The notes beneath the pieces were generated by a model. The model did not search any database. It was not told the origin of the DNA and was given only the letters and a program-made list of their open reading frames with translations. Of a stretch of 29,952 nt of DNA, positions 2,085 through 10,576 are shown in pieces (position 1 is the first letter of the stretch; every line of letters begins with the position of its first letter). The stretch comes from a virus. Taxonomy: Duplodnaviria; Caudoviricetes. Position numbers and translations under genes: made by a program. The stretch covers positions 1 to 29,952 of the IMG/VR virus record IMGVR_UViG_3300021085_000143. One strand, given 5' to 3'.

Positions 2085-2344
2085 ATATATTTACCTATTT
2101 AAGCTGGGTCAAAAAGCTTTGGTCCACTGTCGTAGAAATCGTAAAACTAATTGAAGAAACAATCCCTGATGATGGAGCCGGCAAGGAAAAGCTTGCTGCG
2201 TTTGACTTGATGTTGAAAGCCGCGTTAGAAAAGGCAGACGACATTGATGAGAGCTTTGATAAGCTCCAACCGGTAGCTCACGATATTGTAAGCGCAGTCG
2301 TTACTCTCTTTAACGCGACAGGGTTATTTAAGCGAGCAGAGTAA
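2081..2344 (+). CDS. Hypothetical lysis-region protein (G.GKEKL motif, amphipathic helices)
   Basis: Start ATG 2081 with upstream GGAG; GAGKEKLAAF motif of the kind seen in holin-like phage proteins; TAATG-coupled to the endolysin. Confidence 0.6.
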   Translation: MNIFTYLSWVKKLWSTVVEIVKLIEETIPDDGAGKEKLAAFDLMLKAALEKADDIDESFDKLQPVAHDIVSAVVTLFNATGLFKRAE

Positions 2345-2760
2345 TGAATAGGCTACAACGCCTGCTAATAAGGCATGAATCTCTCAGGAATAAGCCTTAC
2401 GAGGACACAACTGGGAATCTTACTATCGGGGTTGGTAGAAACCTTGAATCACTTGGACTGTCTCGTGACGAGTGCTTATATCTTCTTGATAATGATATAG
2501 CTCGCTGCGACCGAGAGCTCAGGCACAATTTTAAGTGGTATTTAGATCTGTGTAGGGTCCGGCAGGACGCTATGATAAACCTTTGCTTTAACCTAGGTAT
2601 AACTTCACTCCTCTCTTTTAAAAAAGCTCTTTCCGCGATGGCTGAGGGTGACTTTAGCAAGGGTGCTGACGAGTTTATTGATTCGAAATGGGCAACTCAA
2701 GTCGGGCCCACGCGCAGCAGCGATATAGATTATATGGTGCGGACCGGACGATACCCGTAA
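2344..2760 (+). CDS. Endolysin, T4-type lysozyme (GH24)
   Basis: Catalytic spacing E-x8-D-x5-T (HE12...D21...T27IGVG), plus RQDAMINLCFNLG and DSKWATQV. Confidence 0.92.
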   Translation: MNRLQRLLIRHESLRNKPYEDTTGNLTIGVGRNLESLGLSRDECLYLLDNDIARCDRELRHNFKWYLDLCRVRQDAMINLCFNLGITSLLSFKKALSAMAEGDFSKGADEFIDSKWATQVGPTRSSDIDYMVRTGRYP

Positions 2761-2798
2761 AAAAACCCCTAACCAGCGGGAGAACCAGTTAGGGGTTT
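2759..2798 (-). terminator. Rho-independent terminator (minus strand; may also weakly stop the lysis transcript)
   Basis: 11-bp perfect inverted repeat AAACCCCTAAC (2763-2773) / GTTAGGGGTTT (2788-2798). It extends to 14 bp with G.U pairs only on the minus strand and ends in U7. Confidence 0.8.
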
Positions 2799-2830
2799 GC
2801 GGTGGTAGCTGACGGAGATAACCACTCGAC
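2759..2830 (-). ncRNA. Candidate two-hairpin antisense sRNA with anti-RBS loops and intrinsic terminator
   Basis: Minus strand reads GUCGAGUGGU-UAUCUCCGUCAGCU-ACCACCGC-AAACCCCUAACUGG-UUCUCCCG-CUGGUUAGGGGUUUUUUU. A -10 TATACT lies at 2838-2833. Both loops are complementary to early-gene RBSs. Confidence 0.7.
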
Positions 2831-2858
2831 ATAGTATATCTGATTTTTCTTTTCTTAT

Positions 2859-2902
2859 TGTCACCCTTTTTGCTTGACAGAGGATACGTATCTCTTTACC
2901 AT
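2859..2902 (+). promoter_or_regulatory. sigma70 early promoter with overlapping TGTCA-N11-TGACA inverted repeat
   Basis: TTGACA (2874-2879), 17-bp spacer, TACCAT (2897-2902). TGTCA at 2859-2863. Palindrome GATACGTATC at 2883-2892 inside the spacer. Confidence 0.8.
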
Positions 2903-2934
2903 CGTCTACGCTATTAACTGACGGAGTAAAGAAA

Positions 2935-3760: not shown

Positions 3761-4286
3761 TCAGTTCTCTAAAGTGTTTACTGGCGCCGGCAAAGCTTCT
3801 ACTCAGTTAGACGGCTTAATCAATACCCTGGTTGCCGAAAGAATTACCGGCAAGCCGACAGAGACGTTTAAGTCGGAAGCAATGCAGCGAGGAAATGACT
3901 TGGAGCCCGAGGCCAGGCAAATGTTCGAGCTCGACATGGGGCTAAGAGCTAATGAGGTTGGTTTGATTAAGATGGACGATTACGAAATAGGTTGTTCACC
4001 TGATTCTCTTATAGGAGATGACTGTGGCTTAGAAATCAAATGCCCATCTGCGTCAACCATGGTAGCATACAAAAGATCCGGCAAACTGCCGTCGGCCTAC
4101 GTTCAACAGGTCCAGGGCTGTATGTTAGTGACGGGAGCAAAGTCTTGGTGGTTTTACGCTTACCACCCTGAGATGACGCCATTTGTATTAAACGTCAAGC
4201 GAGACGATAAATTGCTGGCTGCAGCGGAAGAGCTGCTAATTAAAACTGCAATTAAAATAAATGAACTGACGGAGACGTTAAAATGA
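3687..4286 (+). CDS. Lambda exonuclease/YqaJ-family 5'-3' exonuclease
   Basis: QG.DEWL..R.G.LTAS, RGN.LEP.AR, CSPD, LEIKCP, Y..QVQG.M motifs. Confidence 0.92.
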   Translation: MPRIIDCVQGGDEWLKQRCGVLTASQFSKVFTGAGKASTQLDGLINTLVAERITGKPTETFKSEAMQRGNDLEPEARQMFELDMGLRANEVGLIKMDDYEIGCSPDSLIGDDCGLEIKCPSASTMVAYKRSGKLPSAYVQQVQGCMLVTGAKSWWFYAYHPEMTPFVLNVKRDDKLLAAAEELLIKTAIKINELTETLK

Positions 4287-4597: not shown

Positions 4598-4807
4598 ATG
4601 AACTTTGGGAAAGCACTAAGAAAATCTCAAGAAATCACAGGGATTCGGTCAGCTCAGCTGGCCGAGTCAATGGGGGTACACCGTCAGCAAATACATAAAT
4701 GGCGGTACAAAGATGATGCCAGGTTATCTTTAGTAATAAAGGTTTGCAGAGAGTTAGGGATGCACCCAATAAGTTTTTTGGAGCTGGCTAATGACAACGA
4801 TTTCTAA
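4598..4807 (+). CDS. XRE/Cro-like HTH protein
   Basis: SAQLAESMGVHRQQIHKWR helix-turn-helix; 69 aa, no peptidase domain. Confidence 0.8.
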   Translation: MNFGKALRKSQEITGIRSAQLAESMGVHRQQIHKWRYKDDARLSLVIKVCRELGMHPISFLELANDNDF

Positions 4808-6197: not shown

Positions 6198-6400
6198 AAG
6201 ATACCCATATTATTGCAATGAGCCCTGAAGAGCTCGATTTGTTTATGGAAAATGATTTTAAAGATTTGACTGAACAGGCCCGGCGCGCAATCGGAACAAT
6301 GATGCTTCTTTGTACGGATTACGTTGATTTTATTTCTGATCATGATTTGTGGGATGAATTTATCAACCAGGTTGAATCAGACCAGTTTGAGGTGCATTAA
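6194..6400 (+). CDS. Hypothetical acidic protein
   Basis: ATGA-coupled to ninG; last gene before the non-coding region. Confidence 0.65.
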   Translation: MKDTHIIAMSPEELDLFMENDFKDLTEQARRAIGTMMLLCTDYVDFISDHDLWDEFINQVESDQFEVH

Positions 6401-6431
6401 ACGATAAGTTCAAATAAATAAAAAAATGAAC

Positions 6432-6460
6432 TTGCAGAATTATTTTTGCGAGATTATGAT
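6432..6460 (+). promoter_or_regulatory. sigma70 promoter driving the structured non-coding region
   Basis: TTGCAG (6432-6437), 17 bp, TATGAT (6455-6460). A-rich UP-like tract upstream, bracketed by the inverted repeat AAGTTCA (6406-6412) / TGAACTT (6427-6433). Confidence 0.7.
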
Positions 6461-6466
6461 GCTGGT

Positions 6467-6830
6467 TGTCGGTGGGCTGATCAAGCCCTAAATTCTGACA
6501 AGGAGAAAAGGAAAACAGAAACCCGACGCACTGATCTTATACTATATTTAGTGTTTGTCATAATTCCTTTTTCTAATCGACTGCGAAGGATATGTCACCC
6601 TCACGGGGTCTCTCACCGAGCGCAGTTTTAAGGCCCAAAAGAGTAGCGCGGGGCCACCGCAACTTGCTAAAAGTCTGAATGCGGCGCGGGGGGATGGAGC
6701 AGCATCCCTTGCAGACTTGCTTGTATCAACTGACTCATTGATACGGCCTCGCCATCCACACTGACGGCTCCGAAGGCAATGCAATGTCCCGAAACCTACT
6801 ACCCTGTGGGTTGGGGCTTGCTTGCTCGCA
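6467..6830 (+). ncRNA. Candidate long structured RNA (possible replication primer/origin or regulatory leader)
   Basis: Dense nested stems: GTCGG/CCGAC, GGGCT/AGCCC, TTCTG/CAGAA, ACTGCG/CGCAGT, AAGTCTG/CAGACTT, GGGATG/CATCCC, GTATCAA/TTGATAC, AACCTAC/GTGGGTT. No convincing ORF. The 3' boundary is approximate. Confidence 0.6.
6534..6561 (-). promoter_or_regulatory. Candidate counter-transcript promoter
   Basis: Minus strand ATGACA (6561-6556), 16 bp, TAAGAT (6539-6534). Predicted +1 near 6527. Confidence 0.45.
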
Positions 6831-6859
6831 AAACCTCCTAACTCACCAAAGGCAATACA

Positions 6860-7045
6860 ATGACAGACACTCAACAAGTAGACTTAAGTGAAAAGCCTTG
6901 CAGATGCGGTGATACAATGGGAGAGGTTATAGGATTTAGAGAGAGATCTACCGATAAAGAAAAAGTTATGCACAGGGTTTGTTGGTACTGCGCTAAATGC
7001 CACGCTACAGAGAAGGCAATAGGTAGAGAAACTTATGTAAATTAA
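6860..7045 (+). CDS. Small Zn-ribbon protein
   Basis: CRCG...CWYCAKCH; weak RBS. Confidence 0.6.
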   Translation: MTDTQQVDLSEKPCRCGDTMGEVIGFRERSTDKEKVMHRVCWYCAKCHATEKAIGRETYVN

Positions 7046-7080
7046 AACTGTTGACACTATTAATTCAAATAGATTAGTAT
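7036..7080 (+). promoter_or_regulatory. sigma70 early promoter with TGTAA-N11-TGACA repeat
   Basis: TTGACA (7051-7056), 18 bp, TAGTAT (7075-7080). Leader hairpin TGGTTGC-ACAAC-GCAGTCA at 7089-7107. Confidence 0.7.
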
Positions 7081-7105: not shown

Positions 7106-7126
7106 CACTCTTGACGGAGATAATTA
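7106..7126 (+). repeat. 21-bp intergenic direct repeat, copy 1 (CACTCTTGACGGAGATAATTA)
   Basis: 20/21 identical to 8261-8281. Confidence 0.9.
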
Positions 7127-7424: not shown

Positions 7425-7443
7425 CTTCTCGGGAGATGAAGCT

Positions 7444-7647
7444 ATGAAAAAAGAATTGTATTTATTAACGCTCGCAATCATTGTCATTGCCGGGCTCAAT
7501 TATTCTGGCAAGCTTGAGAAACAAGATGCCGAAATCGAATCTGCTCAATACGCTTCCATGGTGTGCCTAGGCAGACAGACCGGTCAGCAATTTGGCTGGC
7601 CAAATTATCGCAACCTTGATATTGACTGTACGGAGATAAACCAATGA
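7444..7647 (+). CDS. Small membrane-anchored or periplasmic protein
   Basis: Likely start ATG 7444 (GGGAG upstream). MKKELYLLTLAIIVIAGL hydrophobic N-terminus, two Cys, GWPNY motif. Confidence 0.7.
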   Translation: MKKELYLLTLAIIVIAGLNYSGKLEKQDAEIESAQYASMVCLGRQTGQQFGWPNYRNLDIDCTEINQ

Positions 7648-7879: not shown

Positions 7880-7922
7880 TGTCACCTAAAAGGGTTGACA
7901 CCCCCAGTGGTTTCTGTAGAAT
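7880..7922 (+). promoter_or_regulatory. sigma70 early promoter with TGTCA-N11-TGACA repeat
   Basis: TTGACA (7895-7900), 16 bp, TAGAAT (7917-7922). Leader hairpin GGAGGGGCG-CGG-TGCTCCTCC at 7933-7953. Confidence 0.75.
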
Positions 7923-7970
7923 GGGAACCATTGGAGGGGCGCGGTGCTCCTCCCAAACGGGAGAAACATT

Positions 7971-8240: not shown

Positions 8241-8247
8241 ATCAACC

Positions 8248-8261
8248 GCCCCTTCGGGGGC
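8248..8261 (+). terminator. GC stem with C(UUCG)G tetraloop; weak terminator or RNA-stability hairpin
   Basis: GCCCC-TTCG-GGGGC followed by only a weak U tract (ACTCTT). Confidence 0.5.
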
Positions 8262-8281
8262 ACTCTTGACGGAGAAAATTA
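8261..8281 (+). repeat. 21-bp intergenic direct repeat, copy 2 (CACTCTTGACGGAGAAAATTA)
   Basis: 20/21 identical to 7106-7126. Confidence 0.9.
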
Positions 8282-9985: not shown

Positions 9986-10388
9986 TCTCTGTGAAAAGCC
10001 CAGGAAAAACGGTTTAGGCTGGACTGTATGTTGCCCGGTGCATGGAGAGAAAAACCCCAGCATGAGTATCAAGCTAGGCAGGAAAGGCGATATTATCGCT
10101 CACTGCTTTGCCTGCCACGCCAACGGAATGGACCTGGCAGATGCCTTGGGGATAAGTAAATCGGAACTCTTCGCGCAGCCCCTGGAAAGGCAGAACGACC
10201 AGAACTGGAAACTAAATTCCACCAGGGACTCTGACGACGGATACATTGTAATCCACGAGAGCGCCCTAAAGCGCGGCGAGAAGCCACGCTACGATGATAT
10301 GATGGAGTATAAGCGAGCAATGGCTAGAAGGGCTCAGAGAACAGCCCTGGGCCTTGAGCAAACAATAATCCCAACGGAAAAACTTTAA
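9963..10388 (+). CDS. CHC2-type primase Zn-finger protein without TOPRIM domain
   Basis: CCPVHGEKNPS...HCFAC; about 141 aa; no TOPRIM E/DxD motifs. Confidence 0.8.
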   Translation: MHIDELANLCEKPRKNGLGWTVCCPVHGEKNPSMSIKLGRKGDIIAHCFACHANGMDLADALGISKSELFAQPLERQNDQNWKLNSTRDSDDGYIVIHESALKRGEKPRYDDMMEYKRAMARRAQRTALGLEQTIIPTEKL

Positions 10389-10576
10389 TGGCTATAGAAG
10401 ATTTGGTGAAAGGAAAGCTTTTGGCACAATTGGCGCAGGATAAGGCTGCTTACTTTGCGGCCGGGGGCAAGGTAACTGTATTGCCGCGACAAGCTTACGC
10501 CGACGCAAACAACAAGAAAAACCATTTAAGCTTTGGTGAGATTAAAAATAAGGCTCTTCAAAAGAAGAATATCTAG
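10388..10576 (+). CDS. SutA RNAP-binding-domain-like small protein
   Basis: LAQDKAAYFAAGGKVTVLP resembles the L.....AFL..GGKI..V motif of SutA-like proteins. Confidence 0.5.
   Translation: MAIEDLVKGKLLAQLAQDKAAYFAAGGKVTVLPRQAYADANNKKNHLSFGEIKNKALQKKNI

Follow-up and report, generated by a model that had tools for sequence, protein, structure and literature searches.

Bacterial small RNAs that pair over a Shine-Dalgarno sequence are established repressors of translation, and trans-acting examples such as CyaR and RNAIII have their own promoter, an intrinsic terminator and a C/U-rich unpaired seed directed at several ribosome-binding sites (RBSs). Sponges of the CsrB/RsmY type carry several ANGGA loops on the transcribed strand, the CsrA motif being ANGGA or ACGGA. 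In phages, the antisense RNAs directed against the phage's own genes act on one target or one operon each, as far as the available text of the sources goes (PMC12197685, PMC5320573, PMC4825925). C4 of phages P1 and P7 is an RNA of ~77 nt in which two exposed loops pair in trans with the target mRNA, one of them occluding an RBS; it is built of three stem-loops, is released from a longer precursor by RNase P, and owes its specificity to a few base changes in RNA and target (PMC5320573). The CI RNA of P4 is processed from the transcript that it controls and terminates it via seqA and seqC (PMC4825925). Likewise, pairing by P22 sar, lambda OOP and aQ, and STnc6030 of BTP1 lowers phage gene expression, with one target each in the available text, and STnc6030 gives superinfection exclusion (PMC12197685). 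A literature search, conducted mostly outside subscription journals, returned no description of an RNA such as the one presented here.

The window, by which the whole stretch of 29,952 nt that was analysed is meant, covers ~30 kb of the genome of a marine phage whose head and connector genes are P22-like; its complete relatives measure 35-36 kb. Comparison of the window with named phages by blastn gave no match, and the best capsid match of this phage, at 55%, is to Pseudoalteromonas phage H6/1. The main genes are all encoded on the plus strand, with the lysis genes first, followed by erf, a YqaJ exonuclease gene, an SSB-like gene, a Cro-like HTH gene, ninG, small variable genes, helicase, primase and, last, the virion genes. 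The SSB-like gene was named from its position and C-terminus and has no Pfam or PHROG match. The end of gene 8281 and the helicase start (8483) overlap, and 460 nt of the early region (6400-6860) hold several short hairpins and no called gene, a stretch that is possibly an origin or another RNA. Eight TTGACA sites are found on the plus strand, and exactly three of them, the early promoters of Table 1, have an upstream TGT(C/A)A-N11 half-site. The palindrome TGT(C/A)A-N11-TGACA occurs at three places only, against 0.06 expected, and spans the -35 of all three early promoters; it is likely to serve as an operator, perhaps bound by the product of the Cro-like HTH gene. The latter is the only repressor-type gene that was found, and a classical repressor is lacking. 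For the erf transcript, a start near 2909 is predicted.

The minus strand between the endolysin gene and the first early promoter holds an element that is real and conserved, and that would specify a short RNA of two stem-loops. Hairpin 1 consists of 5 bp and a 14-nt loop; hairpin 2 is long, is followed by a U run, and contains G·U pairs that form on the minus strand. The minus-strand fold has a z score of -3.3, with 0 of 200 shuffles as good, and a predicted energy of -26.6 kcal/mol as compared with -24.0 kcal/mol for the plus strand. Both the TATACT -10 box and the U-tract that had been reported for this strand are present. The -10 box is situated ~6 nt ahead of the fold, a position that hints at a primary transcript. 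The RNA promoter itself is a guess because a good -35 is lacking, the candidates being ACAATA at a spacing of 17 nt and GTGACA at one of 20 nt, and a promoter and terminator scan of the window picked up neither the -10 of the RNA nor its terminator. Since the endolysin stop overlaps the U run, hairpin 2 may also end late transcription. Contigs from 8 of the 11 sequencing runs listed, in which neither strand nor short RNAs can be seen, have a depth of ~2-6, and none spans 2767-2847. Two coding candidates were rejected: a minus-strand ORF of 75 codons from 2832, the ATG of which most relatives have lost, and a short GTG ORF on the plus strand that is not kept in relatives. A check for novelty against Rfam matched no family, with 0 matches at gathering score in the window, no C4-type family among the 4 window matches at E up to 10, and 0 matches in 10 related loci; the plasmid ctRNA model (RF00236) reached 22.5 bits against a gathering score of 45, from the terminator only, and the CyaR model 16.1 bits against a cut-off of 47.

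Table 1. Features of the element, its surroundings and its predicted targets in the window
Feature	Position	Strand	Remarks
Endolysin gene	2344..2760	+	Stop codon 2758-2760 overlaps U run of the candidate RNA
Candidate small RNA, ~69 nt	2759..2828	-	Predicted 5' end 2826-2828; in 12/12 close relatives
Hairpin 2 and U7 run	2759..2798	-	Predicted intrinsic terminator; stem 2763-2798; U7 at 2759-2765
Hairpin 2 loop	2777-2784	-	UUCUCCCG, second seed; invariant core CUCCCGC
Hairpin 1	2802..2825	-	Stem 2802-2806/2821-2825; loop 2807-2820 UAUCUCCGUCAGCU, main seed; invariant core UCUCCGUC
-10-like hexamer TATACT of predicted RNA promoter	2833..2838	-	Poor -35
Early promoter 1	2859..2902	+	TTGACA 2874-2879; TACCAT 2897-2902; palindrome TGTCA-N11-TGACA 2859-2879
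Loop-1 target, erf RBS	2918..2926	+	9 nt
Loop-1 target, SSB-like gene RBS	4266..4275	+	10 nt; inside 3' end of exonuclease gene
Cro-like HTH gene	4598..4807	+	HTH_26 E 2e-4, HTH_3 E 3e-4; not a target
Early promoter 2	7036..7080	+	With TGTAA-N11-TGACA (7036-7056)
Loop-1 target, gene 7128 RBS	7112..7123	+	12 nt, 13 with G·U
Loop-2 target, gene 7444 RBS	7430..7436	+	7 nt
Loop-1 target, gene 7644 RBS	7630..7639	+	10 nt
Early promoter 3	7880..7922	+	With TGTCA-N11-TGACA (7880-7900)
Loop-2 target, gene 7971 RBS	7958..7965	+	8 nt
Loop-1 target, gene 8281 RBS	8267..8275	+	9 nt

The two loops are complementary to RBSs of early genes, and among the curated RBSs of the window this complementarity is restricted to them. 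The seven loop-RBS matches listed in the first-pass annotation were all recovered with the same positions and lengths, and the top ranking predicted for them was observed. When the whole RNA, including the opening cost, was scored against 44 curated RBSs, the seven took ranks 1-7 (early 7/18, late 0/26; P = 8e-4, with a rank cut-off picked once the ranks were known), and the predicted loop-RBS pairing energies are -10 to -16 kcal/mol after opening. Complementarity to late RBSs is not equal to this, none of them (0/26) being among the seven, and RNAs with randomised loops that keep the UCUCC cores reach seven targets in 0 of 400 trials, the maximum being 6, in two trials. Outside the locus, loop 1 has six plus-strand matches of at least 9 nt, five at RBSs and one inside the helicase gene (8973), and none of that length on the minus strand. 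Loop 2 is weak, as only 2 of its 5 plus-strand matches of at least 7 nt are RBSs, and loop 1 carries most of the signal. GGAGA is present at 7/18 early as compared with 0/24 late RBSs, TGACGGAG occurs five times on one strand against 0.55 expected, and a longer cassette, ACTCTTGACGGAGA, is common to early genes (7112 and 8267). At four early RBSs the loop match reaches 4-5 nt past GGAG, as opposed to no more than 3 nt at the 107 GGAG sites that are not RBSs. The RNA (2759-2828) is encoded on the strand opposite its predicted targets, upstream of the erf promoter; it overlaps none of the seven, which lie at distances of 90 nt to 5.5 kb. At each of the three early promoters, the first gene downstream is a target, as had been proposed for TTGACA promoters, the three that were meant being those with the palindrome half-site. 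The description of the targets as a whole early regulon is too strong, since direct targets make up 7 of the 18 early genes; among the 11 that are not direct targets are those for the exonuclease, the Cro-like protein, NinG, helicase and primase.

As in C4, loops exposed in a phage RNA are complementary to target sites that include an RBS, the complementarity being observed here and the pairing predicted. In contrast to C4, the RNA has two stem-loops, the second of which is its own predicted terminator, and the loops are aimed at separate genes behind three promoters; furthermore, C4 operates beside a protein repressor in lysogeny immunity, whereas neither a cI peptidase nor an integrase was found here, only the Cro-like HTH. 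The P4 CI RNA provides a precedent for an RNA, rather than a protein, restraining the phage's own replication functions, but it resides within the controlled transcript between two target sites, whereas the present RNA would be a separate unit on the opposite strand with RBSs as targets. Unlike the cis-antisense RNAs, it overlaps no target and would use seeds of 7-13 nt. A conserved unpaired seed complementary to several RBSs is shared with CyaR and RNAIII, and the candidate promoter and terminator consist of a conserved -10, a poor -35 and a hairpin with a U run; the difference is that the RNA is encoded by a phage, its predicted targets being early genes of that phage.

The fold and its polarity are conserved among close relatives (lineage A), in which the element was present at 12/12 loci examined, the window among them. 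A pattern scan for the element returned 113 stretches, and among the matches listed a handful are relatives already known. An alignment of nine copies shows no change in the loop cores UCUCCGUC and CUCCCGC but varying stems, and 90.7% of the stem cells are paired with 8 double changes, 0 of 500 shuffles reaching either value, in a count for which stem 1 of two rows was misaligned. The minus strand folds better than the plus strand in 9/9 copies, via G·U pairs, and a -10-like hexamer (TATACT, TAGACT, TATTAT or TAGTAT) is equally placed in 9/9. The ranking of targets is similar in relatives: early RBSs occupy ranks 1-5 of 50 in G001 and ranks 1-8 of 45 in G009, and in G002 early genes hold ranks 1-6 and 8 of 45, a late gene being at rank 7. 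The top-ranked early genes of complete relatives include some that have no homologue in the window. The 10 nt of the ssb-like target are unchanged in 14/14 sequences, with variation in the flanking codons, and 3/3 codons at this site are synonymously invariant as compared with 21/106 elsewhere, a constraint that is weak because two of the three are explained by the Shine-Dalgarno sequence itself.

More distant loci were added through alignment of the exonuclease and through a second family of erf. In a fixed zone upstream of erf, a match of at least 8 nt to the erf RBS was found in 40/67 loci, with control means of ~5-7 nt; several lineages showed no such match in this zone, and an element upstream of erf was not found in several relatives (e.g. 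L232, L264, L266, L378 and L383). Four further marine phage lineages (B-E) contain candidate RNAs of like layout with different seeds and different folds. That of lineage B is ~120-130 nt long, lies on the erf strand and has a terminator, and that of lineage C (~58 nt) is on the strand opposite erf, with a TATAAT hexamer and a cUUCGg terminator loop. The lineage D element has a three-loop fold on the erf strand and is matched to targets reading AUGGGAG and ACGGGA; it might act in cis, as it has no clear U run. The lineage E RNA (~57 nt) is located 1.5 kb downstream of erf, its hairpin facing the end of ssb, and was found by the blind detector described below; over 20 sequences, its stems are 98% paired with 33 double changes. 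Lineages A, B, C and E have the -10 box and U-tract on the anti-RBS strand, whether this strand is opposite erf (A, C, E) or the same as erf (B). The orientation of the RBS-like copy is direct in lineages A, C and E but inverted in B and D, and in A, B, C and E the strand on which the copy lies renders it antisense. Seed-RBS pairs across the lineages include CUCCGUCAG with CUGACGGAG, CUCCUUUAGA with UCUAAAGGAG, CCUUGAGU with ACUCAAGG, CCUCCAUGU with ACAUGGAGG, CUCCCAUC with GAUGGGAG, and CCCGUCA with UGACGGG. In lineage B1, erf reaches only ranks 4, 7 and 10 of 43-47 RBSs, and a late gene stands at rank 3 or better in two genomes and at rank 4 in the third.

Several other features of these lineages were observed. 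G003 (L408-L409), of lineage B, has a lambda gpA-type terminase and other virion genes, with the early and lysis module and the RNA unchanged; consequently, the RNA appears to travel with the early module. Also in lineage B (L172, L176, L187, L193, L206), a variable, iteron-like array of short direct repeats, e.g. GTAATTACGATT and CTACGACAAA, separates the RNA from the erf promoter and is probably a replication origin. In lineage C (L281, L298, L324, L325), a second A-run and hairpin are found 150-250 nt upstream of erf, directly behind the endolysin stop and followed by a GGAG-bearing stretch, possibly representing a second, tandem RNA.

Seed and erf RBS co-vary both between and within lineages, as had been anticipated for related phages. 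In a cross matrix of 50 loci, in which the 30 loci of lineages A-D were picked by eye, the assignment of RNAs to the erf RBSs of their own lineage ranks first of 120 permutations over the five lineages, and with one random locus per lineage the lineage match ranks first in 4857 of 5000 draws. Permutation within lineages over 31 RBS types gave a median p of 0.004 and a maximum of 0.016, values that, like those of the detector, are optimistic because the loci are related and not independent. The RNA of the same phage outperforms all RNAs of other lineages in 35 of the 50 loci (A 6/6, B 9/13, C 1/5, D 5/6, E 14/20); in the other 15, an RNA from another lineage pairs at least equally (C 4/5, B 4/13, E 6/20, D 1/6). 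Two tests for a G·U-compatible bias among the mismatches were negative (55/126 vs 39/91, p = 0.51; 2/53 vs 5/58, p = 0.93).

A blind detector was applied to 94 orphan elements, each a hairpin with a U run, from 140 loci, which were paired with the RBSs of their own and of unrelated phages. Strong pairing was seen for 84/2240 combinations with own RBSs as opposed to 58/8874 with unrelated ones (40 higher, 13 lower), whereas 48 ordinary gene terminators displayed no clear excess (17/1198 own vs 35/4352, p = 0.19). The detector gave no candidate with at least two targets in H6/1, ZP9 or EBPR podovirus 1. Further orphan terminator RNAs, with C-rich segments that pair with 2-8 own RBSs, were noted at L227:544-618, L279:2645-2719, L305:9034-9108, L369:2975-3049 and L401:5483-5557.

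Because the element is conserved and folded, and its loops mirror seven early RBSs and co-vary with such sites, it is likely a small RNA that lowers early translation; we put the probability of a trans-acting anti-RBS RNA with this effect at about 0.75. The proposal of a trans-acting minus-strand RNA on several early RBSs is thereby strengthened by conservation, strand polarity, target ranking and co-variation, while the wider claims attached to it are conjectural. It is unlikely that hairpin 2 is merely a bidirectional terminator separating the lysis genes from the early promoter, with the likeness of loops and RBSs due to duplication or gene conversion of an RBS cassette. The overlap of the U run with the endolysin stop in lineage A and the position of the lineage E hairpin facing the end of ssb would suit such a terminator, the early RBSs lie partly in a repeated intergenic cassette with the longer common form ACTCTTGACGGAGA (7112, 8267), and shared ancestry alone would yield co-variation. 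However, the invariance of hairpin 1 and of both loop cores against varying stems speaks against it, the ssb target lies within coding sequence and not in a cassette, the copy is direct in some lineages and inverted in others with the antisense strand retained in A, B, C and E, and ordinary terminators show no excess pairing.

It is more improbable still that a phage repressor binds the common motif as a DNA site, similar to a stoperator, with TGACG as a half-site of TGTCA-N11-TGACA and the hairpin copy as one more site. The palindrome at all three early promoters and the presence of a Cro-like gene are consistent with this, and a second palindrome, TGTCA-N10/11-TGACG, overlaps the erf leader in 4/12 relatives, for which reason the TGACG in the erf leader may double as an operator half-site (CGTCT-N11-TGACG at 2903-2923 in the window). 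Conversely, a partner half-site is found neither for the loop copy nor for any of the other four loop-1 targets, and a DNA site leaves unexplained the compensation in the stems, the G·U pairs on one strand, loop 2, and the seeds of some lineages, which contain no TGAC. Very little probability attaches to the opposite strand being the active one, such that the 3' end of the late lysis transcript presents GGA loops and soaks up a CsrA/RsmA-like regulator with further binding sites in the ACGGA of early RBSs. Read on the plus strand, each loop contains GGA, loop 1 holding ACGGA as do five early RBSs, and the plus strand folds as well (see above). Nevertheless, the minus strand is indicated by its -10 box, by the U run and by the G·U pairs, loop 2 has no ANGGA, the lineage D targets AUGGGAG and ACGGGA also lack it, and in lineage C the cUUCGg terminator loop is on the anti-RBS strand; a CsrB/RsmY sponge would have several ANGGA loops on the transcribed strand, whereas here a single ACGGA loop lies on the strand opposite the -10 box and U run. 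Finally, an RNA aimed mainly at host mRNAs, or a general anti-Shine-Dalgarno decoy with secondary phage matches, is scarcely credible: every seed includes plain anti-Shine-Dalgarno sequence and the UCUCC and CUCCC cores are able to pair with many GGAG sites, but the match extends past GGAG at four early RBSs further than at the 107 non-RBS sites, and the seeds track the RBS variants of their own phage.

For the anti-RBS small RNA, the following course may be envisaged. Host polymerase would make the short RNA leftward from its own predicted promoter, ending at the U-tract terminator, and the two C/U-rich loops would pair over the extended Shine-Dalgarno sequences of the seven early genes, blocking ribosome loading; overlapping downstream genes, e.g. 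that of the helicase, would fall by translational coupling. The strong early promoter would act first, and the stable RNA would accumulate from the weaker back-to-back promoter, with recombination and early accessory proteins being lowered later in infection by the accumulated RNA. Provided that the element is such a small RNA, a role as delayed negative feedback on early translation is modestly favoured, as the genomes have no lysogeny genes and the RNA promoter looks weaker than the early promoter. Seed diversification fits the exclusion of phages with the same seed, which is a rather doubtful second use of the RNA. Immunity or a carrier state, as suggested in the first-pass annotation, found no direct support, since tyrosine integrase, resolvase, cI-type peptidase and ParA (PF00589, PF00239, PF00717 and PF13614) were each found in 0 of 5 complete genomes, four of close relatives and one of lineage D. 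A search of genome contigs for prophage forms gave 9 loci only, at 32-45% identity. The divergent position normally held by cI, also claimed for the RNA, does not apply to the window, where the RNA diverges from erf and not from the cro-like gene; by eye, it applies in lineage E only. There (L332:7497-7800), the RNA lies between ssb and a small HTH-like ORF, identified by eye, from which it is divergent, and occupies relative to this ORF the place of cI relative to cro.

If the reading is correct, one short RNA that recognizes a common RBS tag over several early operons would time or silence the phage programme without a protein repressor, and natural matched and mismatched RNA-leader pairs are on hand for reporter tests. 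We tentatively consider a broader version, with less confidence than in its alternatives taken together, in which many phages use a private extended Shine-Dalgarno code on early genes that is read by a small RNA, i.e. an RNA-only master repressor of swappable specificity that would stand in for cI in repressor-less marine phages and define exclusion groups, and in which the same logic would apply to the start-associated sequence (SAS) of Cluster K mycobacteriophages. SAS is an asymmetric extended Shine-Dalgarno tag ahead of many non-structural genes, conserved beyond its pairing with 16S; its role was left open, and no partner RNA is described in the available text of the sources (PMC3203893, PMC11373665). 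The tag in the window is likewise asymmetric, located just ahead of the starts of non-structural genes and conserved past what pairing with 16S requires, but sequence and host are unrelated, and the tags here share only GGAG with the 13-bp consensus of Cluster K.

One reversed SAS was reported by Pope et al. in four K1 mycobacteriophages (PMC3203893). In Anaya, Angelica, Adephagia and Amelie, we observed a long hairpin on the plus strand whose loop, of 10-11 nt, is formed by the reversed SAS; the loop sequence is shared by Shaobing, for which another fold is predicted, and Amohnition and Unicorn have a variant of the loop. The region had 147 matching records, and the loop loci are L433:1385 (Adephagia 58,684-58,693), L423:29870, L425:28634, L431 and L432. 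The loop is absent in Yuna, Keshu and Pixie, though Pixie has many SAS, and none was found in the TM4 stretch examined. In Adephagia it is positioned between genes 92 and 93, the interval in which late transcription is reported to start (PMC11373665). The hairpin is a lead and not a result; it offers a direct test of the role of SAS in Cluster K, in a cultured phage with a laboratory host.

Two further observations concern the early region of the window phage. A repeated hairpin-plus-RBS cassette is located ahead of several variable early genes (window 8245-8275; G002, L406:366-388 and 688-710), and may mediate the shuffling of these genes. The last early gene before terS (window 10388-10576) is a candidate late regulator, as its homologue at L406:2817-3014 has a weak match to a SutA RNAP-binding domain (E 2.5e-4, below the cut-off).
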